A stretch of DNA of 64,000 nt from a virus (Duplodnaviria > Caudoviricetes): positions 13,029 through 77,028 of IMG/VR virus record IMGVR_UViG_2562617158_000001; one strand, 5' to 3'. The notes under the pieces are model-generated. The model saw only the letters and a program-made list of their open reading frames with translations. It searched no databases and had not been told where the DNA came from. Positions 2,448-61,522 of this stretch are shown piece after piece. The translations under genes were made by a program, and so were the position numbers. Position 1 is the stretch's first letter, and each line of letters opens with the position of its first letter.

Positions 2448-2758
2448 AACAGAATATTAATGGCATGACCATCGTAAGACTCCTGGTTGACTACGGCGAC
2501 TCTGGATTTCTTTACTGCATGACCATTGCCACAAAGGATAAAGACATGCTTTTTCAGTGCATGAAAGGGTATTCCCATGATGTTCGATATCTGGACACCA
2601 AGAAGAGAGCAGGGAAGAACGACAAGGGCAACCGTAGACTCCCGGACGGCTCCATTATCATCGGTGCGACTGCTTTTGGTGACAAGGTATCAGCCAACAC
2701 AGCCTTTAACAAATCTGAAAACCGTATGAATCTCATTCGTCAGGCGGTGATGGTATGA
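2444..2758 (+). CDS. hypothetical phage protein
   Basis: ATGA overlap with upstream stop; no motif. Confidence 0.55.
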   Translation: MKQNINGMTIVRLLVDYGDSGFLYCMTIATKDKDMLFQCMKGYSHDVRYLDTKKRAGKNDKGNRRLPDGSIIIGATAFGDKVSANTAFNKSENRMNLIRQAVMV

Positions 2759-3315
2759 AGGATTCTATTGAACAATTCCTAGATGATTATAAAGCAGGGC
2801 GCATTGACGTCAACGCACTCCAAAGGCGAATCAATTATATGGATTGGAGCCAGAATAAGCCGATGGCAATGCCGATGGATTATATCGAATCCAGTGAGGA
2901 GCCATGTGAAACCCTTGTTAACAGAGAGAAGTCTAATGACCTCGCTACGGCATTACATGACCTAAAAATGAACCTCTCAGATGATGACTGGAACATGTTT
3001 CTCATGACGGCCAATGGTTGTACCCAAGAGGAAATCGCCAACAAGTTACACTATACCCGCAGTTCAGTCATACGGCATATGCAGCGCATTGCCAAGATCA
3101 AACCTGAGTTACGTACTTTACTGAAAAAGGATACCCCAATGTACTTCGCGGATACGCCAAAGGATAAGCTGCGGTATCCCATGGACATTGCACGGAAGGT
3201 CACTGACCCAGACGGTAAAGTCCGTTGCCACCTTCCTGAATACCTCCATACCCAGGATTGTGACTCTATCTGTACCTATTGCCAAAACTGTACTCGTAAG
3301 ACTTCCCAGTGTTAA
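2755..3315 (+). CDS. sigma-70 region 4-like HTH protein with C-terminal Cys cluster
   Basis: LSDDDWNMFLMTANGCTQEEIANKLHYTRSSVIRHMQRI resembles a sigma r4 HTH; C-term CxxxCxxCxxC. Confidence 0.55.
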   Translation: MKDSIEQFLDDYKAGRIDVNALQRRINYMDWSQNKPMAMPMDYIESSEEPCETLVNREKSNDLATALHDLKMNLSDDDWNMFLMTANGCTQEEIANKLHYTRSSVIRHMQRIAKIKPELRTLLKKDTPMYFADTPKDKLRYPMDIARKVTDPDGKVRCHLPEYLHTQDCDSICTYCQNCTRKTSQC

Positions 3316-13138: not shown

Positions 13139-13690
13139 AGAGTTAACATCATATTGCAGGGCTTAATATTGATGTATTCTGTCCGTTCCTCCGTTTTGAT
13201 CCTTTGGCAACATCGGGAATCTCAGTTACTCAATCAGGGACGCAGGATAAAATCCGTTGTGTGTTCGCTGAGTACCAATATTAAGCACTGTATATACAAG
13301 GTTAACATTGGATTGTCATCGCTATCGTGCGGGTTTGTAGTCTCATCTCTGAGGCATAGCCCGTGTCATGCACAATCAGTCTTTCGACGGTTCACTACGT
13401 TATTTTGGTTCGCTGCAACATTACAGCGTTTACATTATTTGGTTGTCTTATTTCTTTATCTCTCTCTTTATCTTGACTATAGTATACCGCAAAATAGCTG
13501 TATAGTACATCAATAGAATCACTTGTTACAGCTTATTAACACACATTATATCGCAATATCGCTGCATATCTCACTCGATCGCATTAATGCTCTTGATTTC
13601 AAAAAGGCGTCAAAACAGATGTGCAGTACAAGGGGACACGTAGCGGATCAGTCAATATGCAATGCATATATGTATAGTATGCAATAGGAG

Positions 13691-13921
13691 ATGTATAACA
13701 TGTCATTAAAACACAAATTAAAGGTACTATGTGCTAATAATGATATAACATTATTAGACATAATGAAGGCATATAATAAAGCATATGACAAGTCAATGGT
13801 ATCTCAGACATTCTATAGAATGGTAAATAGTAACAATATGCGTTACAACCAATTATCAGATATGCTTGACTCAATTGGCTATGAAATTGTATTCCGACGC
13901 AAGCGCGATGGGGATCAGTAG
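13691..13921 (+). CDS. small HTH repressor/Cro-like DNA-binding protein
   Basis: 76 aa, KVLCANNDITLLDIMK..SQTFYRMVNSNNMRYNQLSDMLDSIGYEIVF; divergent from the early cluster. Confidence 0.6.
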   Translation: MYNMSLKHKLKVLCANNDITLLDIMKAYNKAYDKSMVSQTFYRMVNSNNMRYNQLSDMLDSIGYEIVFRRKRDGDQ

Positions 13922-14063
13922 AATTGTTTTTCTAAATTCAATTTGATTCAATGGATGAAAGCAGCCAAATACACATGAATGGCCGTTCACATGTATTGAT
14001 CCTTATTGTGTTTCCGTTGTATGCGTTGATGTTACGTTGAGTTCCCGTTGTGTAGCCAATGAG

Positions 14064-14211
14064 ATTACAACGAGATACCGTTGTATATTCCATTGTCATG
14101 ACAGGCGTGTTGACAGATTGACGCGCGTTCTATACCACTAATATATTGACGTTCATCAATATGTTATCAAGGGAATAGTCATTGATCCTGACGATGGTAT
14201 CTCGTTGTAAT
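14064..14211. repeat. 16-bp perfect inverted repeat (attacaacgagatacc / ggtatctcgttgtaat)
   Basis: arms at 14064-14079 and 14196-14211. Confidence 0.85.
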
Positions 14212-14565
14212 TCGCCTGGTTACAATGAATATCTATGTCATTCATTGAGATGCATTATCATATAATTGTCATCATTGGTATCACAATGACAGCAGCGCAC
14301 AAGGCAATGACACATTACTGTATGTAATATTAGGTTGTAAATGGCGTAATATAATGGGTTATCGCGATGGAGATCGATACGTCCGCAAATCGGATACACT
14401 GATGGGGCGGTGCATTTCATCGTACCAATTTGGGAAACGTTGTCAGGAAAGTTCGCGGCATAGTCCCAACACAAACCGCGCACCTCATTGGAATTTCTAC
14501 GTCATGCACCGTATTCATTGTGTCTCATTAAATTTCATGCAATTTCATTAAAAAACACCGCAATC

Positions 14566-14683
14566 CCCTTGTGCCACAAGGGTTTATCGAAGGTGAAACA
14601 GGGTAATCCGTTACCATTTCGTTGCAGAATCGTGCTCTACCCTTGTAAATCAAGGGTTTATACAAGGTGATACGGGTGATTCC
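14566..14683. repeat. two imperfect ~44-bp direct repeats, each starting with a CCCTTG-N5-CAAGGG palindrome
   Basis: cccttgtgccacaagggtttatcgaaggtga (14566) vs cccttgtaaatcaagggtttatacaaggtga (14640). Confidence 0.8.
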
Positions 14684-14738
14684 TAAATGGGCACACAGGA
14701 CAATCTGGACGTTCAGAAAAATTTTTTATATTTTTTTG

Positions 14739-14795
14739 AGATTTACCGAACAAATACCCCCATTTTTCGACATTATATATAGAGGGGTAATTTTA
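14739..14795 (+). promoter_or_regulatory. conserved phage promoter-like motif, copy 1 of 3
   Basis: ACCGAACAA-N(16-17)-ACATTATATATAGAGGG, also at 17693 and 39021. Confidence 0.6.
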
Positions 14796-15488
14796 TTACC
14801 AAGTCGAGTGAAGGTGGAGCCGTAGTATGCGTTGAGTGTCAATGCTACGCAGGCGTGAGCCATCGCATTTCTCTCTTCTTTTCCTTGGCCTACATTGTAA
14901 GTCAGAAACCTCCCTGCCTGACCGTAGGAAGTCGGGCTATTCAATCTTTACGTCCATGGCGTAAGTCAGAGTCATGCATAGATACCCATTGGGCAGCAGT
15001 GACAGCGTAAAGAGAGAAGAAAAGGAAGTGCCCCGGGGATAGTGTATCTTCACGGGGGATTACAGGGGGACATAGAGATACAATAGAGTATACTATAGTA
15101 ACTCATTGGATATACATTGAATCTCTATAGATAACATTGTATTCAACGATAAGCGTATAGTCTTTAAACATAGTCCTTCCGTTGATAACAATGATTCTTA
15201 TAGAGTTAATGGTTAGACAATGTAAGGCAATAGGGTTGCATTCCTTCCCTTGATTAAATAAATTACTTACGAAGTAAGTGTTTGCGATAGCAAACTTGAA
15301 CCTTGATATACCTATGTACTCATTGAGATGAGTATAGTGTTCCAATGAATCTGATTGGAAACCGTTAGTGAACTATGTTTAAAGAACATAGTCTTTACAA
15401 CAGAATACAATAACACTCATTGTATACTATAGATATACAATGTATATACATAGTATAGCCATGACCATAGAACTCTATGGTCTTTTTT
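14796..15488 (+). ncRNA. candidate long non-coding transcript between the conserved motif and a terminator
   Basis: no credible + strand ORF; several hairpins; ends at gaccataga-ac-tctatggtc-tttttt. Confidence 0.35.
15463..15488 (+). terminator. intrinsic terminator just upstream of the phoH RBS
   Basis: 9-bp stem GACCATAGA/TCTATGGTC followed by T6. Confidence 0.8.
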
Positions 15489-15504
15489 ATTAGGAGGACA
15501 TAAC

Positions 15505-16167
15505 ATGAATGACAAAGAAATTCCGCTGTTCAACAAGGATCGTGACCGTTTCTATAAGAAGATGTCCAATGAACAACATGTGATGTTCGATAGCATCCTT
15601 GAGGTTCCATTTACCTTTGTAGAAGCCAAAGCAGGCTCTGGCAAGACAACTGTTGCATTTGCTGCTGGCATTGATATGCTCGCCAATGGTGTCATCAGTA
15701 AAATCATCTATATCATCAAGCCATCCAAGCGCAGCTATGCCAACGGATACTTACCAGGAGACCTTGAACAGAAAACAGCGCAATTATACTATGCTGCATA
15801 TGACGCACTGGAAGTCCTTGGATTTTCACAGAGGGATATCCAGGCACTCATCAATACAGAACAGGTCATGCTCATTACAGACAATAATCTCCGTGGCGTG
15901 AACCTTATGGATTGCCTTGTCATCATCGACGAGGGACAGAACATGGGCGTGAGTGACTTACGATTGGTGTTGACGCGCATTCATGATGATTCTAAGTGTG
16001 TATTGCTTGGTGATTCTCGACAGAGTGACAATCCAGGCAACAAGGAGCATTGCTTTGTTGACTATGGAAACTACATGGTTGAGCACATTGGACGCAAGGT
16101 TGAGCTGACACGGAACTTCCGTGGACGTTTATCGAGGATTGCAGAGGAATACGAACCATTAGATTGA
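15505..16167 (+). CDS. phoH: PhoH-family ATPase
   Basis: AKAGSGKTTVA Walker A, LPGDLEQK, LRGVNL, IIDEGQN, LTRI, LLGDSRQSD. Confidence 0.93.
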   Translation: MNDKEIPLFNKDRDRFYKKMSNEQHVMFDSILEVPFTFVEAKAGSGKTTVAFAAGIDMLANGVISKIIYIIKPSKRSYANGYLPGDLEQKTAQLYYAAYDALEVLGFSQRDIQALINTEQVMLITDNNLRGVNLMDCLVIIDEGQNMGVSDLRLVLTRIHDDSKCVLLGDSRQSDNPGNKEHCFVDYGNYMVEHIGRKVELTRNFRGRLSRIAEEYEPLD

Positions 16168-16537
16168 ATTATAAGGGGATGTTTATTTGATATATATCAC
16201 GATTCATGATGATAGCATTGAGGGTGCGTTGAAGGATATGACGGTGCGTGTGGATGATAATGGAAATCCCGCAGAGGTTTCGCACAAAGTCCAAGAAAAA
16301 GCCAACGAGCTGTTTACGGACTGGAATAATAAGCGTATGGAGGTGGAGCCTGATGAATAATGGCGCATTACTAATTCTCTTTGGTGTTCTCATGGCAGTT
16401 GTATCTCTGCTCTGTGCAAATAGCGTGCAGATGTTCAGAGCAACCGTGTGTGTTATGCTCCTCGTAGCAAATATTGGTATTTTGGCACTCGTTGCGGCTA
16501 GTTTTGAGGTCGTAGACGGGGATGACGAGGAGAAAAA

Positions 16538-17692: not shown

Positions 17693-17744
17693 ACCGAACA
17701 ATTACCCCCATTTTTATACATTATATATAGAGGGGTAATTTTAT
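17693..17744 (+). promoter_or_regulatory. conserved phage promoter-like motif, copy 2 of 3
   Basis: accgaacaattacccccatttttatacattatatatagaggggtaattttat; AATTACCCC/GGGGTAATT inverted repeat encloses the TATATA. Confidence 0.6.
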
Positions 17745-39014: not shown

Positions 39015-39061
39015 AGATTTACCGAACAATATGCCCGAAAAAAGACATTATATATAGAGGG
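39015..39061 (+). promoter_or_regulatory. conserved phage promoter-like motif, copy 3 of 3
   Basis: agatttaccgaacaatatgcccgaaaaaagacattatatatagaggg. Confidence 0.6.
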
Positions 39062-39575
39062 ACAAATAAAGAGGGTATCATTGGATATACATTGAAACTC
39101 CATACAGACTTCGTGAACAACAATGGATGAAGCCTTAGAGATTTGACTTTGGTCCTTCCATTGAGATTCACGATAAGCTATGAGAGTAATGAATGGATAC
39201 TGAATGGTTTTGACATTCTCCTGTTTATAAAATCATTTGCGATAGCAAATATTTACGAAGTAAATCCTTCAAGGAGATAACATTGAAAGCATTGTCCTTA
39301 AAGAAGCTATTGAGTAGTAGTTGAAATACTATGAGATATATCTCATAGACAAACAACGAAAATTCAATAGCTTCTTTTTGTACAATGAATCAAATATATC
39401 TCTTTGATTTGATTTGCTTACGCAAATACTTACTTCGTAAGTGATTTGTTTAATCAAGACAAGCATGTCCCTCCCATTCAAATAACATGAATATCATTGA
39501 TGACAATGGATAGAACCTTAGTATTAAACCTTGGTTCCTCCATTGAATACAATGAATACCATGAAATACCAATGA
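39062..39575. repeat. non-coding segment homologous to 15090-15460
   Basis: 19-nt identity tcattggatatacattgaa (15103, 39078); ~46-bp inverted copy 15248-15295 vs 39412-39458; twin mini-hairpins. Confidence 0.75.
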
Positions 39576-54300: not shown

Positions 54301-57300
54301 ATACCATACTGGGGATATCATCACATTTCATCTGCCAGACGGAGATGTTAAAATGAGAATCCTTGGTATTGAGTACGACAGGGAAATTATTCTGAACCAT
54401 TCAAATGCGTTCACTAATCCATTGGCTAGATTGTATGATGTAGATATTCAATGGGATGAACAAGGCAAGCCAAAGCATCTCCGAGGCACTGTCAATGAAT
54501 GGTGGTTGAGTCGCGTGGTCAAGGAAAGTCGTGTCGATGTAGAGCATGGTAATCACAATGGAGGTAATAAGATGAAATACAATGTAGGTGATGAAATCCG
54601 TTTTAATGGTACGGTGTACAGAATCACGAATATAGTAGATGACAACTATGTTATTCGCGATGAGATTAATAGGATAGACTTTAATATCCCGTGCCCAACG
54701 ATAGACATCCATGCTATTGCCATCAAGAAGCCTGTAGAGAAGCCCAAAGACCCCGCTGTTGACCATCCATCATATTACCAGGGCAGGATTGAGGTCATTG
54801 ACTTTATCGAGGACAAACACCTCGGGTTTAATCTAGGCAACTGTGTAAAATACATCAGTAGAGCTGGTAAGAAGAATCCAGATAAGCTAATTGAGGACTT
54901 GAATAAAGCACGTTGGTATCTGGATAGAGAGATTGCACGTATTGAGAAGGAGAAATAACTTGGGGGATTTGATTGTAAGAGTAGAGGAGGATAATTATGG
55001 TTGACATTGAGTTTTTACGGAAAAACACCACTAATTGCGAGGCATGTATTGATGAGTTCCTGAGAGATATAAGGGACAGGATTGAGGACTACTCCTATTT
55101 CAAGGAAGAAAGAGAGGATATAAGGAAAGAGATTTACGCGGATGTTGTTTATCTGCTTACGTACCTCCGTATTATGGATGTTGACTTTACCAATTGTGAT
55201 TTTCATCATGACGTGGAGTTAGCCGTAAAGTTCATAAAAGAAATACAGGAGAATAAAAAATAAGAGGAGGAGTAACCATGAGCTGGAAAGATACAGACCG
55301 CATATGCGAAGGCGTAGGCCGTATCGTCGATGCGTTTCAGGACAACCTTCCATGTAAAGGCCATGTATGGAACGAGAATGAAGATAAGGATTTCTACAAG
55401 AAGTGCTACGAGTGTCCTGTTTATTACTATGATGAGCACTCGAACAAAGATTGTTGCCATATCAGGGACACCTACTATGCTATTGATAAATTGGATGATT
55501 AGGAGGAGTTTCATTATGAACCTCACAGTTTTGTTTGGAGTGCTGCTAGCATTTGAACTAGTAGGAGATATTTGCTACCGTGTTTTCTATCGTATGGTTG
55601 GTAGGAACAAATATAGGGTTGGTGATATCATCTGGGTTAGAGTAGGAGATGCTTTAGAGATTGCAGAGGTAATCAGCATTACATGGCGGTGCTACTACCG
55701 CAATGAATACGGTGCTAAACCTGAGTATCACGTCAAACTTCTCAATGAGGTTGGTCAGTATTGGGACTTTGAGCAGTCTGAAATCATGTGCAAGTTTAAT
55801 GGAAAGGACGAGAAGAAACAATGAAATTATCCGGTAAGGAAGTTAATGATAATTTAGATGAACATAAGTCTCAATTCAAAACAGATGCAGATACCTACAA
55901 GGAGATGTTTGAGGATGTGGCGTGTCGGATAAACTGTAATAAAAACCCTGCTGTGCGATGTGTGTTTTGGCAAAAGTTATGGTTATTCTCTAAGAACTTC
56001 ACTTGGAATTATGTTCAGCATGACTTTGATAAGGGCATCGATTGTTTCAAGGAAGATATAGAGCTTGATATATTAGATTACGGCGAGTAACATATCGAAG
56101 AAAAAATACAGAGAATGGAGGATCAAAATGACTGTTGATTATATTGAAAAGAGAATGACGCCATATGATTACGAGACTAAGATTTCTATTGATGGCCGTG
56201 AGTGCTCAGAGCATTGCATTCGTAGAATCAATGGAAAGGTAACGGAGTATTTCGTTGACGGATGCACTTTTAATGATGTGTTCACTCGATTATTCCCTAA
56301 GGTCAAATCATCACATATCACTGCCCTTGTCAATGCAATCCGTAGATGTAACAATGATTTCGGAGTGAATGACGTACAGGAGATATTGGAATATGTTGAG
56401 GGGTTGAATTACAATGAATAATCTGAAACGTAAGGCTAATATTATAGACCATTCCATTCCTTATCGTGCATTTGGGTGCGCCAAACACAGGAATGACCGT
56501 TGGAGACTTGTGAATCGCGCCATAGAAACACGTAGGTTATATAAGGTGACGTACAAAGAGAAGTGTATGGGAGAATACATTACATTCATCATGTATGAGC
56601 ATGACTTATCCGAACAGGCTGTGCGTAATAGATGGAAAGACGAAGATAACATGGATATTGTCGAGGTGGTAGAGGTCAAATGACAAATTGTGACTACAGT
56701 GTCCCTTATGGTGTTGCATGGGCTATCCCATGCTCACCGTATAGTGGAGCAATATACTATGGGTACTATACACTATTTTGGAGGTATTGAGATGCTTGAA
56801 CATATTAAGCGAGAGATGAGATATATCAAAATAAACCAATATGGGTTCAAGACAACTATCACTATTGATGGCAAGGAATACACTGAGAACGAAGTGTGTA
56901 TTGGTGGAGAGTCTACGATTTACCCAGAGTCTATTGACGAACAGCTCCAAGAACTAATCCCTGATGTAGATATTGAGTTTATCACGGAGTTTGTCAATGA
57001 CGTAGAGAATGTAAAAACGTCCGATGATTTTGAGGATACACAAAAGACATGGGATGCTCTTGTAAGAGTCCAGGAACTCATAGATAAGATATCTAATGAT
57101 AGCGATACCAATAAGTTCGACAGATTGTATCGTATTCTCGTAAAGGCTCATGACACAATCTTCAGTAATGGTGGAGGTATCTGCGAGGAGTATACGGCGA
57201 AACCTGACCGCAAGAAATGCCCATTGTATAAGGATGGTAAATGCATGCTTAATTCTACGCTTACTGCATTAAATTCCTTGCGGGACGCATGTATTGCAAA

Positions 57301-58251: not shown

Positions 58252-60540
58252 ATGTATATCTCATTACATAACCATAGTGACGGCAGTCTACTCGATGGCT
58301 ACCAGACTGTACAGGAAATGGTAGCCCGTGCAAAGTCATTAGGTATGCCTGCAATCTCTCTGACTGACCATGGAACAATGCGGAATACCATTCGTTTCTA
58401 CGAGGAGTGCCAGAAAAACGACATCAAGCCTATTGTTGGCTGCGAGTTCTACTTCTGTCCCGATGTGAATATCAGGGATAAGTCACTGACACACCATTTG
58501 GTCATCCTTGCAATGAACGATGAAGGATACATGAACCTCAAGAAACTCGATACGTTTGCGTACAATGAGGACTCGTACTACTACAAGCCCAGAATTGACT
58601 GGGAAGCCCTGCGGGAACATAGTGATGGACTCATTTGTCTGTCTGCATGCATGGCGTCCATTGTCAACACAGAGAATGGCGAGGAGTGGTTCGAGAAATA
58701 CAAAGAGCTGTTTGGAGATCGTTTCTATGCAGAGATTCAGCCGCTCAACCTCGAGAAACAGTGGGAGTACAACGACAAGGTCATTGGATTGGCACGGAAA
58801 TACGATGTTCCCCTTGTTGTAACAACAGATGCTCATTACTCTATCCCAGAGGATAAGGTATATCATAGCCATTGGATTCGTATCAATGGCAACCAGTATC
58901 ACGATGACGAGAACTACATCTGGTCAGATGACGAGATACGGAGCACAAAGTGGATTCCACAGGATGTTATTGATGAGTGCATCGAGAACACAGAACACAT
59001 TGCGAGCCTTTGCAACGTCACAATCCCCGACTCTGGTAGTCACTATCCAAAGTATCCCTGTTCCAATCCTAAGGAAAAGGTAAGGGAAATCTGTAGGAGG
59101 CACTGGAAAGAACTTGTGCCGAAAGGGAAATACAAGGAATACGCTGAACGCTTTGAGATGGAGATGAAAGACCTTGAAGCAACGAATTACCTTGAGTATC
59201 TACTGATTATCTGGTCTGTATTGAGTTGGTGTAAAGAACAGCGTATTCCGTTGGGAGAAGGCAGGGGTTGCTCGATTTCTGGAACCAAGGTTCTTATGTG
59301 GAATGGCACAGTGAAAAACATAGAAGATATTGTTGTTGGCGACAAGGTTATCTCTCATACTGGTCAGATTCGTGAAGTAACCAATACGTTCAAGTATGAG
59401 GTCAATGAGCCAATGATTCAGGTGACGGTTGAGAAGAGAAATCCAATGACGTTCACTTGTGACCATAAAATTCTCGTATTCAGAGGATCACGTTGCCACA
59501 AGAAAGAATCAACTGGGTATAAGTATTGCAGACCTACATGTTCACAGTCTTGTCGAAAGTATGGTTCATACGAATGGATTCCAATGGATGAAGTAGAGAA
59601 GGATGACCTCGTATGCTTCCCGCAGGTTCGTTTACCTAAACCCCAGCAGACAAGAATAGATGTGAAGGAACTATTCCAAGATGTCATTGAGAAGGATGGA
59701 TACGTTAATGTATTTAGTAATGATGCGCAGTGGGAAAAAGGAAAAATTCCTCGATATATCGACATTACTCCAGACCTTTGCAGGCTCATTGGTTATTTCA
59801 TTGGTAACGGATGGGCAACAAAGGGCACGCACAAAGATGGGGTTTCGGGAGGATATAAACTCGGCATTGCTTTTCCGACAATTCATATGGAATACGTAGA
59901 GGATTGTCGCAGATTACTCAAGCAGATATTTGATGCAGATACCTCGGTTAAACCAAACAAAAGGAATACTTGTGTCCAGATACATTGTTATAGAAGTATC
60001 ATCGCCATGCTTTTTGCCAAGTTGTGCGGCGTCCATGCAATCAACAAGCACATCCCAGATATTCTAATGGTTGATAATCCATCATGGACAGTACATTTGC
60101 TTGAAGGATTGATGAGAACCGATGGTTCTGTGGCGGGAGGTAGAACAACATACGATTCTATTTCGTACAACCTTGTCTGTCAAATCAAAACTCTGTGGTC
60201 GTACCTGGGGAGAGACGCAGTGATTAGAATTAGGAACGTAACGCATAAAAACTGGCATACGTCTTATAAACTTGTCCTGCACTCGACGTCGAGATGGCAC
60301 GGAGACAACATGTTCCACACCGAGGTGAAGGATGTAAAGCATATTGATAATTTTAAAGGATATGTTTATGACTTCACTACAGATGTAGACCATAGCTACA
60401 TTGCAAACAATACGGTTGTCCATAATAGTTCAGCCGGATGTCTCGTTGGCTATCTCATGGGTATCCATAAGATTGACCCGATAAAGTACCACACGGAGTT
60501 CTTTCGGTTTTGCAATAGAGAGAGAAGAAGTCCAGCAGAT
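58252..60540 (+). CDS. dnaE: DNA polymerase III alpha subunit, exon 1 (PHP domain plus intein 1)
   Basis: LHNHSDGSLLDG, TDHG, GCEFY, TTDAHY, GRG|intein|SSAG, ends SPAD. Confidence 0.95.
59269..60426 (+). mobile_element. intein 1 (386 aa) with LAGLIDADG endonuclease
   Basis: C1 CSISGTKVLM, block B TCDHKIL, LIGYFIGNG and LLEGLMRTDG, terminal VHN followed by Ser. Confidence 0.93.
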
Positions 60541-61522
60541 AAATATTAATGTCGAGCTGCTTGGAAACAAGTGGTGTTAATTCTCGTGAACGCTTAATTC
60601 AGCGGTGTGGGGGAACTCCCTGCTAACGGTGGAACTCCTTATGATTAAGGACAATACCGTGCTAAGTAATTTCGCAACCTTGTCATCTACAGAAAGGATG
60701 ATGAGGATATATAGAAATATTCCTGGGTATGACGGGAAATACATCATGTATGATAATGGAGATGTATGGAATGCCATATCCCAAAAGAGAATCTTACCCA
60801 AGGTAAGAGGTAAGATGAAATTGCCTAGTTATCGGCTTTATGACGCGAACGGTGTTGGGCATGTGAAATCAGTTGAAACATGGTATTCGGTTGTATTTCC
60901 AGAAAAAGGACATGAACGAAAAAATGGATTCATGGATATACCAGGGTATCAAGGGCTATATGGTATCTCTACTAGTGGAGAAATATGGTCTTACAGTAAA
61001 AAGAGAGTCCTAATATCAAGTCCAACAACAACATGTCCTTACCTCTGCATCAAGTTATCGCTCAACAATAAAGTACATTACGAGTTAGTTCATAGGTTAG
61101 TTGCTATGACATATATTCCTAACCCAGATAACCTCCCAGAGGTTGACCACATAGATAGGAATATTATGAATAACAATGTTAGTAACCTAAGATGGATTAA
61201 TCGAATTGGCAATCTAAAGAATAGCTCATGCGGGTTAGTTCGAAACTTTCGAGAGTGCTCATTGTTTTACAATGGAACGTTCGTCGGAAGGTATCAATCA
61301 ATATGTGAAGCAAGTAGGGAAGGACATAAGCTGTTCGGAGCTTCATATAGTGGGCTTAATAGGAATCTTAAAAGTAAAGGCTGCGAAATTAAAAGTGTAA
61401 CGACTAGTCCGTTGGGACGTAGGGTGGGGTAATGAATTACCACTCGAAGTGCGAGATACCTAAACCAGAAATGGCATGGTAAAGAGATAGTCTAATCCCT
61501 GTGGTAACATAGGGTAGTAATG
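60541..61522 (+). mobile_element. group I intron (982 nt) in dnaE
   Basis: exon ends in U; P/Q-like ggggaactcc..gacaataccgtgctaag; R AACGACTA; S GAGATAGTC; P9 CCCTGTG-GTAA-CATAGGG; terminal G; the splice restores SPAD|VDSD. Confidence 0.92.
60698..61432 (+). CDS. intron-encoded NUMOD4-HNH homing endonuclease
   Basis: two IPGY(D/Q)G.Y NUMOD4 repeats; VHRLVAMTYIPNPDNLPEVDHIDRNIMNNNVSNLRW. Confidence 0.92.
   Translation: MMRIYRNIPGYDGKYIMYDNGDVWNAISQKRILPKVRGKMKLPSYRLYDANGVGHVKSVETWYSVVFPEKGHERKNGFMDIPGYQGLYGISTSGEIWSYSKKRVLISSPTTTCPYLCIKLSLNNKVHYELVHRLVAMTYIPNPDNLPEVDHIDRNIMNNNVSNLRWINRIGNLKNSSCGLVRNFRECSLFYNGTFVGRYQSICEASREGHKLFGASYSGLNRNLKSKGCEIKSVTTSPLGRRVG

Follow-up and report, generated by a model that had tools for sequence, protein, structure and literature searches.

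Organization of the locus

The window analyzed here is a 64-kb stretch (64,000 nucleotides) of a 77-kb phage record, IMGVR_UViG_2562617158_000001 in IMG/VR. Around a phoH-like gene it carries the following features, numbered from the first base of the window:

14745–14796, + strand: promoter-like motif of 52 nt, copy 1 of 3, directly upstream of the module; putative promoter
17693–17744 and ~39015–39061: the other copies of the promoter-like motif
14797–15085, + strand: structured module of ~290 nt, 50% GC, bearing tracts 1 and 2 (below) and lying between the promoter motif and an AT-rich leader
15463–15490, + strand: terminator-like hairpin and T-run, just ahead of the phoH ribosome-binding site
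15505–16167: phoH-like ORF

The promoter-like motif holds an inner inverted repeat (TACCCCC...GAGGGGTA), and its copy 1 is nearly invariant across the homologues described below. A sigma-factor-like ORF is found at 2755–3315. We predict a leader or noncoding RNA of ~0.7 kb, bounded by the terminator-like hairpin; downstream of the module this leader is AT-rich (32% GC). An equivalent hairpin and T-run stands ahead of phoH in one homologue (L007). In leader 3, the promoter motif is followed by 17 nt and then by the box found at 15103–15129 in leader 1. The module region contains no ORF, and a small-ORF reading was rejected because alignment indels are not multiples of three and no frame is conserved.

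An exceptional same-direction complement pair

The module bears two tracts, one of pyrimidines and one of purines, each with a short extension:

14868–14886, + strand: tract 1, all-pyrimidine, 19 nt (TTTCTCTCTTCTTTTCCTT), the proposed Hoogsteen third strand; three variants in homologues
15009–15027, + strand: tract 2, all-purine, 19 nt (AAAGAGAGAAGAAAAGGAA), proposed as the central strand of a triple helix
14863–14867, + strand: extension of tract 1, in this genome only
15004–15008, + strand: extension of tract 2, in this genome only

The initial annotation had described a perfect 24-nt parallel complement here, and this is exact: 14863–14886 (TCGCATTTCTCTCTTCTTTTCCTT) and 15004–15027 (AGCGTAAAGAGAGAAGAAAAGGAA), both on the + strand, are complements read in the same 5'→3' direction at 24/24 positions. 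The two lie 141 nt apart from start to start, complementarity stops at both ends, and the gap between the 19-nt tracts is 122 nt. At spacings of 12–600 nt, this is the longest same-direction complement in the 64-kb window, where the runner-up is 13 nt and no other pair reaches 14 nt. The expected frequency, which the annotation had proposed to compute, puts 24 nt against maxima of 11–14 nt in 20 first-order Markov simulations. Long homopyrimidine and homopurine runs are present elsewhere, with six pyrimidine and nine purine runs of at least 14 nt on the + strand of the window. Given one all-pyrimidine and one all-purine 19-nt tract of the same composition, the chance of a full match is ~2 × 10−5. 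By the simulations and this match probability, a chance origin of the tract pair is excluded.

At the DNA level, the purine run is 20 nt long on the non-template strand, 19 nt of which match tract 1. The tracts are single copy in the 77-kb record. Allowing up to three mismatches, we found no further copies except a chance-level match at 55109–55127 (three mismatches), which apparently lies inside coding sequence and was rejected as a second copy.

The two tracts covary in parallel

We found the homologous locus in 11 other assemblies: five contigs of IMG/VR plus six from metagenomes, of which at least two are human gut. These 11 loci represent eight distinct sequences and three tract versions. 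An assembly artefact had been named as a possible explanation; the same locus recurs in 12 independent assemblies and so is not one. Across the homologues, only the 19-nt homopyrimidine/homopurine core (14868–14886 / 15009–15027) is conserved. The five extra bases, TCGCA/AGCGT, are confined to this genome and already broken in its nearest relative (L017), and other lineages have TTGTCT facing CAGGGT at this place. Thus, the 24-nt unit is exact in this window, but its conserved part is the 19-nt core alone.

Within the core, tract 2 is the same-direction complement of tract 1 in 151 of 152 cells over the eight distinct sequences. The tract versions differ at positions 6, 7, 8 and 15, and each time both tracts are altered such that complementarity is kept. 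These positions are 96.9% paired with double changes at 4/4, compared to 50–72% paired and 0–1 double changes in control registers slid by 1–3 columns. In an unbiased scan of all column pairs, the parallel stack ranked first. Antiparallel registers of tracts 1 and 2, in which 14–16 of 18–19 positions pair if G.U is included, showed no covariation. The sole exception to complementarity is an A opposite G in one homologue (L014), on a contig with ~3x coverage. Such a combination would form an A+.G-C triple, as known from Tetrahymena telomerase RNA (PMC13541005).

The annotation had singled out compensatory changes in homologues as its decisive test, and at four positions the outcome is positive, with parallel complementarity retained. 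Statistical power is limited, as there are only three tract variants, produced by at least two evolutionary steps. We know of no polymerase error, replication or slippage route that yields a non-reversed complement; Hoogsteen pairing, unlike polymerase error, does account for joint changes in the same direction. Because compensation is parallel at four positions and the antiparallel registers lack covariation, the best reading of the sequences is a selected Hoogsteen, or triple-helix, relation between tracts 1 and 2, as the annotation had suspected.

Exact and degenerate patterns of the tract, core and promoter motif retrieved from public collections only the same five IMG/VR contigs, pattern scans of genome contigs returned nothing, and blastn of the locus against GenBank phages gave no match. 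The terminase protein matched GenBank phages of many unrelated hosts at identities <60% (best listed, 34%). One locus added by a looser promoter pattern (L025) was discarded as a chance match in what is apparently coding sequence. Eleven further PhoH-bearing phage loci (L033–L043; PhoH 40–53% identity) carry neither the tracts nor anything similar to the module. In two of them (L037/L038), a same-direction complement of 11 nt is at chance level, apparently in coding sequence, and was likewise set aside.

A third tract pairs antiparallel with the purine tract

Between tracts 1 and 2 lies another pyrimidine-rich element:

14940–14953, + strand: tract 3, TTC-AA-TCTTTACGT, Watson-Crick partner of 15005–15018

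Tract 3 pairs antiparallel with the 5' flank of tract 2 and with tract 2 positions 1–5 and 8–10. In the unbiased covariation scan, this helix (14945–14953 / 15005–15013) is the rank 2 stack. Including a 3-bp extension it comprises 12 pairs, paired in 100% of 144 cells over all eight sequences, with two compensatory pairs: CG/GC in the flank and UA/CG at tract position 8. When each of the eight homologues was folded alone, the 9-pair core had a probability of 0.84–0.98, and the 3-pair extension reached 0.84–0.87 in 6/8 sequences.

Position 8 of tract 2 covaries with both of its partners, reading C.G-C in one lineage and U.A-U in the others. These are the two canonical isomorphic triples. Read in reverse, tract 3 mirrors tract 1 at 8/10 of the first positions, and at 9/10 in some homologues; over positions 1–5 and 8–10, tracts 1, 3 and 2 together follow the triplex code. 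Tract 1 is separated from tract 3 by 53 nt with two independent hairpins, and tract 3 from tract 2 by ~51 nt. In every lineage, purine-tract positions 6 and 7 face a 1–2-nt mismatch, and position 8 alone among the four covarying positions has a compensatory change in the RNA Watson-Crick strand as well.

The tracts are embedded in a structured module

Around the three tracts, the module contains the following elements:

14850–14853 with 14913–14916, + strand: short helix CAGG:CCTG, which would close a loop containing tract 1 and the following hairpin
14887–14903, + strand: hairpin directly 3' of tract 1, GGCCTAC-ATT-GTAAGTC
14916–14937, + strand: invariant hairpin GCCTGAC-CGTAGGAA-GTCGGGC, pairing probability ~1.0, in all homologues
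14954–15004, + strand: conserved 51-nt sub-domain including AGTCAGAGTCATGCAT and GCAGTGACAG, enclosed by the tract 3:tract 2 helix
15031–15057, + strand: G/C-rich hairpin CCCCG...CGGGG after tract 2, containing the pyrimidine stretch 15047–15053

The four pairs of the CAGG:CCTG helix are 100% paired in the eight sequences, one of them as AU in five, GC in two and GU in one, which is weak to moderate evidence for a real element. The hairpin 3' of tract 1 folds in every lineage from unrelated sequences, being GGAAGATG...CATCTCC in the others. In the hairpin at 14916–14937 only the loop varies; as its stem is invariant, it gives no covariation evidence, and it includes a U.G pair compatible with the + strand alone. 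Invariant U.G pairs of this kind, compatible with the + strand only, occur in two helices and give the element its + strand polarity. The loops of the module are also strongly conserved. Folding of the single sequence showed no extra stability relative to shuffles (z = −0.63), and the RNAalifold consensus for the module as a whole was unconvincing.

A supported RNA Watson-Crick partner covers positions 1–5, 8–10 and perhaps 12 of the purine tract only. For positions 11–19 of tract 2 we considered three candidate partners, and convincing covariation was seen in none. The pyrimidine stretch 15047–15053 is 89% paired with the 3' half of tract 2, but controls do equally well and the predicted pairing probability is 0. 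UUCCUU ahead of the invariant hairpin fits two lineages only. The remaining candidate lies further downstream:

15244–15251, + strand: distal CTTCCCTT tract, candidate partner of tract 2 positions 13–20

It matches at 8/8 positions in four distinct sequences (six loci) and at 7/8 in the others, with no compensation. As it belongs to a repeated TTCC(C/G)TTGAT motif, it may instead be a protein site.

A proposed RNA triple helix and its rivals

Our tentative preference, which we rate at slightly under an even chance, is a pyrimidine-motif triple helix formed within the + strand leader transcript, with tract 3 as the Watson-Crick strand. Transcription would start at the promoter-like motif (14745–14796, + strand). 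The purine tract (15009–15027) and its 5' flank would be Watson-Crick paired to 14940–14953, and tract 1 (14868–14886) would lie as the third strand in the major groove of this tract 3:tract 2 helix, parallel to the purine strand, forming U.A-U and C+.G-C triples. In this way the helix would fasten the 3' end of the GC-rich, ~290-nt module to its 5' part. Our best guess at a function is that the helix locks the long leader ahead of the terminator and the phoH operon, being rigid, nuclease-resistant and possibly sensitive to pH/Mg. We infer that the molecule is RNA and that the helix runs over all 19 positions.

The composition of the tracts argues against the RNA model, as three consecutive C.G occur at positions 15–17 in two lineages and two in this window. 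Consecutive C+.G-C triples destabilize the telomerase and MALAT1 triple helices in cells, and 19 consecutive triples would exceed the longest solved RNA triple helix, which has 11 (PMC7583470). That all 19 positions are triple in vivo, either through a two-piece RNA Watson-Crick strand or through a self-targeting nascent-RNA:DNA triplex controlling the transcription unit, is possible but doubtful.

The main rival, which we consider unlikely, is an RNA:DNA-DNA triplex in which tract 1 of the leader RNA binds the duplex at 15009–15027, parallel to the purine (non-template) strand, and would hold the RNA at its own locus or form a polymerase roadblock. Here the RNA helix 14940–14953 / 15005–15018 would merely sequester the RNA copy of the purine tract. 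The DNA duplex gives a perfect Watson-Crick partner at all 19 positions, which would explain why positions 6, 7 and 15 are compensated without a compensated RNA partner. This also accounts for the perfect match across the whole purine tract, the target being a pure 20-nt purine run on the non-template strand, and with a tether of ~120 nt the local concentration would be high. Duplex DNA carrying an RNA pyrimidine third strand is an established kind of triplex (PMC6411930; PMC7583470). However, the mirroring of tract 1 by tract 3 (8–9/10) and the three-strand covariation at position 8 are left unexplained, as is the need for so elaborate and conserved a fold, of ~290 nt, around what would be a simple third strand. 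The consecutive C+ problem applies as it does to the RNA model, and no functional RNA:DNA triplex has been established in bacteria or phages (reviewed in PMC13463272). The initial annotation had put forward nascent RNA clamping the downstream duplex. Its Hoogsteen relation is supported, but it missed tract 3; because tract 3 pairs antiparallel with tract 2, an intramolecular RNA 'paperclip' is at least as likely. Two other roles that it had raised fared less well: a two-stranded parallel RNA duplex is not needed to explain the tracts, and nothing in the analysis favors an origin or primer structure.

A structure made of DNA alone is improbable. This could be an intrastrand or looped triplex, of the type of H-DNA or of a potential intrastrand triplex (PIT), or a transcription-driven R-loop at the purine tract whose displaced purine strand sits on the upstream duplex in the purine motif; its effect would be on replication, recombination or supercoiling. 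As the two duplexes mirror each other, a third strand fits the 19 positions in each of the four combinations available to DNA. The purine strand is also the non-template strand, an orientation that favors R-loops, as known from work on GAA.TTC repeats. Against this, the tracts are spaced by 122 nt with conserved hairpins, compared to loops of a few nucleotides in H-DNA and PIT motifs; the element occurs once in the 77-kb genome rather than as a dispersed repeat; and no replication or recombination gene adjoins the tract locus. Invariant G.T pairs and strand-specific helices further indicate a folded single strand downstream of a promoter.

Least probable is that there is no triple helix at all: an ordinary antiparallel RNA duplex of the tracts would have ~−12 kcal/mol over its 14–16 pairs, many of them G.U, and includes a 7-bp stretch (tract 1 positions 8–14 / tract 2 positions 14–20) that is compatible in all lineages and partly used in the unconstrained minimum-free-energy fold, but the changes at 6, 7, 8 and 15 are unmatched where their antiparallel partners would lie, double changes are essentially absent from antiparallel and slid registers, and low-complexity resemblance by chance, artefact or slippage fails, respectively, on the simulations, on the 12 independent assemblies and on the inability of slippage or replication to make a non-reversed complement.

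Significance and comparison with known systems

Long Hoogsteen triple helices are well established in vitro. To our knowledge, natural ones with comparative support are few, namely some eukaryotic and eukaryotic-virus RNAs (MALAT1, NEAT1, PAN) and short riboswitch and telomerase motifs. In prokaryotes, the biological relevance of triplexes is, according to a review, largely unresolved (PMC13463272). The present locus offers a natural compensatory series: the tracts exist in three versions, four positions are changed on both sides, and one is changed in all three strands. This argues for selection on a triplex code of 19 positions in a gut phage. The tract pair is a rare natural case of a three-stranded-helix pattern in a bacterial virus. 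If RNA, it would extend the ENE-type principle to phages, and with 19 RNA triples it could surpass every natural RNA triple helix known; if RNA on DNA, it would represent a novel mode of bacterial cis regulation. Either 19-position reading, if true, would make it the first long Hoogsteen triplex of a prokaryotic virus that is functional and supported by evolution. As the locus is short, single copy and easily synthesized, it makes long triple helices in bacteria and phages, in RNA or on DNA, directly testable.

The initial annotation knew of no described phage element of this kind, and our searches agree. Rfam returned no family at E ≤ 1 for the region 13500–16500, ENE+A models included; GenBank phages gave no match; and reviews of RNA triple helices (PMC13541005, PMC7583470) do not mention phages.

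Among phage RNAs, the promoter-proximal antitermination RNA put of HK022 resembles the module in being a structured RNA that acts in cis, placed right after phage promoters and before terminators; an RNA triplex within it is important for its function (PMC9378689). However, put is ~70 nt long with two stem-loops and a short minor-groove triplex, and has no long pyrimidine/purine tracts; the two share no sequence or structural similarity, and a likeness in antitermination is unsupported. The eukaryotic lncRNA-DNA triplexes resemble the phage locus in that a pyrimidine RNA of third-strand length matches a pure purine duplex run by the parallel code (PMC6411930). They differ in that the phage target is found 141 bp further down within a single transcription unit, that the phage match is one of sequence, and that the RNA copy of the target is predicted to be itself base-paired within the RNA.

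In H-DNA, the tracts form a homopurine.homopyrimidine mirror repeat on one strand with a short spacer, whereas the + strand here has a pyrimidine and a purine tract that are complements, with no mirror, 122 nt apart. The PIT, BoxC and TM-ECO DNA motifs of bacteria share with the phage locus three tracts on one strand that obey the triplex code in prokaryotic genomes. Their tracts are ~8–10 nt long and G/C-rich with loops of 3–6 nt, and they are dispersed multi-copy repeats treated as DNA structures (Holder et al. 2015; PMC4666352). The phage element, in contrast, is single copy, with 19-nt tracts and structured linkers of 50–120 nt, in a promoter-proximal module resembling a folded RNA.

A close parallel is with the ENE+A elements (MALAT1, MEN-beta/NEAT1, and the PAN ENE with poly(A)), which are RNA stability elements whose purine tract is the RNA 3' end or a poly(A) tail. 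In an ENE, a single hairpin with one internal loop, flanked by stems, sets the two U-rich strands opposite each other, whereas ~53 nt and two hairpins lie between the pyrimidine strands of the phage. The phage purine tract is a mixed A/G sequence (6–7 G) of 19 nt that does not lie at a known 3' end, being followed by at least 460 nt, the next terminator-like site being ~460 nt beyond tract 2; unlike in the ENE, its Watson-Crick strand covers about half of the purine tract, and its host is a bacterial virus. Nevertheless, ENE+A helices, like the one proposed for the phage, are intramolecular and built of major-groove U.A-U and C+.G-C triples (PMC7583470). In both, an upstream pyrimidine tract is the same-direction complement of a genome-encoded purine tract, and a second pyrimidine tract in between is its antiparallel complement. 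The resulting linear 'paperclip' order of third strand, Watson-Crick pyrimidine strand and purine strand is common to ENE+A, intrastrand triplexes and the phage element.

A same-direction complement preserved by double changes

The initial annotation had reported that 14863-14886 and 15004-15027 are complementary base for base when read in the same direction, and we confirm this for 24 of 24 bases, with no extension at either end. The pair is the longest same-direction complement in the 64-kb window, the runner-up being 13 nt (pairs 12-600 nt apart). In 20 windows simulated with a first-order Markov model, the longest such complement was only 11-14 nt. Pure runs of at least 14 nt are rare on the + strand of the window (6 pyrimidine, 9 purine), and for two such 19-nt tracts of the same composition a full match by chance has p ~2e-5; chance is ruled out as the source of the match between the tracts. 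The features concerned are as follows.

Tracts and surrounding features
14745-14796, + strand: promoter-like motif, 52 nt, copy 1; the tracts lie downstream of it
14868-14886, + strand: tract 1, all pyrimidine, 19 nt
14940-14953, + strand: third tract, pyrimidine-rich
15009-15027, + strand: tract 2, all purine, 19 nt
Upstream of the PhoH-like gene: non-coding gap of ~1.3 kb containing both tracts
15505-16167: PhoH-like gene with a strong AGGAGG ribosome-binding site
17693-17744: promoter-like motif, copy 2
~39015-39061: promoter-like motif, copy 3

Queries with the PhoH protein and a conserved core pattern recovered the homologous locus from eleven further contigs, five in IMG/VR and six from metagenomes, at least two of which are human gut. 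The resulting set holds 12 sequences, 8 of them distinct within the module, the GC-rich segment that carries both tracts; identity in the non-coding region is 67-77%, the closest relative aside. The element was absent from the distant PhoH-bearing phages in which we looked for it.

Tract versions among the homologous loci (L numbers)
Version 1: this window, L017 (nearest relative); tract 1 TTTCTCTCTTCTTTTCCTT; tract 2 AAAGAGAGAAGAAAAGGAA
Version 2: L005, L008, L019, L020, L014; tract 1 TTTCTTCTTTCTTTCCCTT; tract 2 AAAGAAGAAAGAAAGGGAA
Version 3: L004, L006, L016, L007, L023; tract 1 TTTCTCTTTTCTTTCCCTT; tract 2 AAAGAGAAAAGAAAGGGAA

The covariation is based on these three versions, which vary at positions 6, 7, 8 and 15 along the tracts; each time both tracts are altered and the same-direction complement is preserved, so that the compensatory changes by which the initial annotation proposed to judge the pair are present. 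Across 8 sequences and 19 positions, 151 of 152 cells are complementary, the sole exception being an A opposite a G in L014, a contig with ~3x coverage. At the four variable positions 96.9% of cells are paired, with double-sided changes at 4/4 pairs, a score unmatched by any shuffle; sliding the partner by 1-3 columns leaves 50-72% of cells paired and 0-1 double changes. When all column pairs were scanned without bias and the hits extended in both directions, the parallel tract stack came first. Antiparallel registers of the two tracts give 14-16 pairs of 18-19, need G.U, and show no covariation. The proposed unit of 24 nt holds in part: its 19-nt core is conserved, but the five extra bases are specific to this window and broken already in L017. 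We take the 19-nt pyrimidine/purine core to be the selected unit. Version 3 is shared by two quite different 5' domains (L004/L006/L016 versus L007/L023; homologue alignment A1, columns 55-105), which implies two or more independent evolutionary steps with two double changes apiece, and also that the module is mosaic or its 5' hairpins are freely replaced.

To our knowledge, established chemistry allows no polymerase to produce a non-reversed complement; copying mechanisms are therefore excluded, and selection for pairing remains. The only established scheme we know of with parallel geometry restricted to pyrimidine opposite purine is the pyrimidine-motif triple helix, in which a U/C third strand runs parallel to the purine strand and forms U.A-U and C+.G-C triples. 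That relatives lack the non-homopurine extension is consistent with such a helix and speaks against a parallel duplex of a general kind; the parallel-stranded RNA element that had been offered as an alternative is not required.

A third tract would supply part of the Watson-Crick strand

Second in the unbiased scan was an antiparallel helix between 14945-14953 (TCTTTACGT) and 15005-15013 (GCGTAAAGA), the latter comprising the 5' flank of the purine tract and its positions 1-5. The helix resumes past a 2-nt mismatch, where 14940-14942 pair with positions 8-10. All 12 of 12 pairs form in 8/8 sequences (144/144 cells), two of them compensatory: one flank pair is either CG or GC, and the pair at position 8 either UA or CG. 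With homologues folded singly, the predicted probability of the 9-pair helix is 0.84-0.98 in each, and that of the 3-pair extension 0.84-0.87 in six sequences and ~0.2 in two. Purine-tract position 8 co-varies with each of its two partners, giving C.G-C in the window's lineage and U.A-U in others, and the third tract, read 3' to 5', mirrors tract 1 at 8 of the first 10 positions here and at 9 of 10 in some homologues. Along the sequence, the third strand comes first, followed by the Watson-Crick pyrimidine strand and the purine strand. ENE+A elements such as MALAT1 have the same paperclip order, and it is also the strand order of intrastrand triplexes (PMC4666352).

Invariant U.G pairs in the third-tract helix and in hairpin 14916-14937 are compatible only with the + strand, the one read from the promoter-like motif. 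A hairpin immediately 3' of tract 1 is present in all lineages with unrelated sequences, and one position of a 4-bp helix (14850-14853 with 14913-14916) shows pair types AU, GC and GU. In L007, a terminator scan picked up the counterpart of the invariant hairpin GCCTGAC...GTCGGGC (14916-14953 region) on account of the U-rich tract behind it, and this tract is the Watson-Crick third tract.

None of three candidates for the RNA Watson-Crick partner of purine-tract positions 11-19 shows covariation. The pyrimidine stretch 15047-15053 does no better than controls and is out-competed by a local hairpin, UUCCUU before the invariant hairpin fits two lineages only, and the distal CTTCCCTT (15244-15251) matches at 8/8 or 7/8 but leaves the position-15 change uncompensated. 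In all lineages the RNA Watson-Crick strand is mismatched at positions 6 and 7. At three of the four positions with double changes, compensation therefore involves the two tracts only.

The module is a discrete insert in the leader upstream of phoH

The window comes from an IMG/VR provirus record of 77 kb that has the gene content of a tailed phage: terminase, a long tail module, its own DNA polymerase, thymidylate synthase, RNA ligase, integrase and a sigma-factor-like ORF. This last ORF (2755-3315, phrog_1190) could recognise the three-copy promoter motif. Judging by the strong Shine-Dalgarno sequence, the host may be a Firmicute. The DNA polymerase gene is split into one ORF at 58252-60549 and another that runs from 61520 to the window end, with an HNH endonuclease ORF (60605-61432) between them; this looks like a homing-endonuclease or intron-type interruption. 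A perfect literal mirror repeat of 22 nt (55247-55268, AGGAGAATAAAAAATAAGAGGA) sits just upstream of a ribosome-binding site and ATG at ~55279.

A coding reading of the tract region fails, as there is no ORF and indels in the homologue alignment are not multiples of three. Behind promoter-motif copy 3, only 17 nt separate the motif from a box equivalent to 15103-15129 of the leader behind copy 1; the ~290 nt between them in the latter thus form a discrete module. This module (14797-~15085) has 50% GC versus 32% in the downstream leader, and is bordered by the promoter motif on one side and the AT-rich, hairpin-rich leader on the other. The leader terminates in a hairpin and T-run (15463-15490) immediately before the phoH ribosome-binding site, so phoH expression from the upstream motif would need read-through; a divergent relative keeps the position with a different loop (L007 3941-3985). 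Nested long-range inverted repeats (15107-15139 with 15418-15450; 15151-15174 with 15372-15395) turn the AT-rich leader (15107-15450) into one giant hairpin of ~350 nt, pieces of which recur behind copy 3 at 39078-39560. The motif TTCC(C/G)TTGAT(A/T)A, which may be a protein-binding site, occurs three times, once inverted, flanking the module on both sides (14162-14175, 15177-15190, 15245-15260); one of these copies shares bases with the distal segment considered as a partner for the purine tract.

We find an RNA triple-helix lock on the leader plausible, if not quite probable. The module would act as a structural lock on the leader or on a noncoding RNA, affecting RNA stability or phoH read-through; we propose this from its place immediately after a phage promoter motif, its character as a discrete insertion in a ~0.7-kb leader with a conserved terminator, and its highly conserved loops. 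Protonated cytosines would be required, making the lock sensitive to pH and Mg2+. An RNA:DNA triplex, in which tract 1 of the RNA would bind duplex DNA at tract 2, seems to us rather unlikely, yet stays a strong rival because double-stranded DNA offers a perfect partner at every position; two or three C.G positions in a row are disfavoured at neutral pH under the RNA and RNA:DNA models alike (PMC7583470). DNA-only structures, whether an intrastrand triplex with a loop or an R-loop whose displaced purine strand binds the upstream duplex, satisfy the triplex code equally but fit poorly with the long structured linkers, single-copy status and strand-specific helices, and we consider them improbable. 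That no triplex forms is very hard to credit.

Comparison with known triple helices

In two reviews of RNA triple helices (PMC13541005, PMC7583470), bacterial examples are confined to riboswitches and group II introns, and phage are never mentioned. Among solved RNA triple helices the longest run is 11 consecutive triples (PMC7583470), HK022 put RNA contains a short minor-groove triplex (PMC9378689), and according to a recent review the relevance of bacterial triplexes is unresolved (PMC13463272). Bacterial intrastrand triplex DNA motifs are short and multi-copy, with tiny loops (PMC4666352). The phage element lacks the clamp architecture of ENE+A and has no match in Rfam; it also lacks the short loops and multi-copy status of PIT repeats. 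From its sequence features, we therefore place it in neither ENE+A nor PIT repeats, but it would work like an ENE+A or paperclip triplex.
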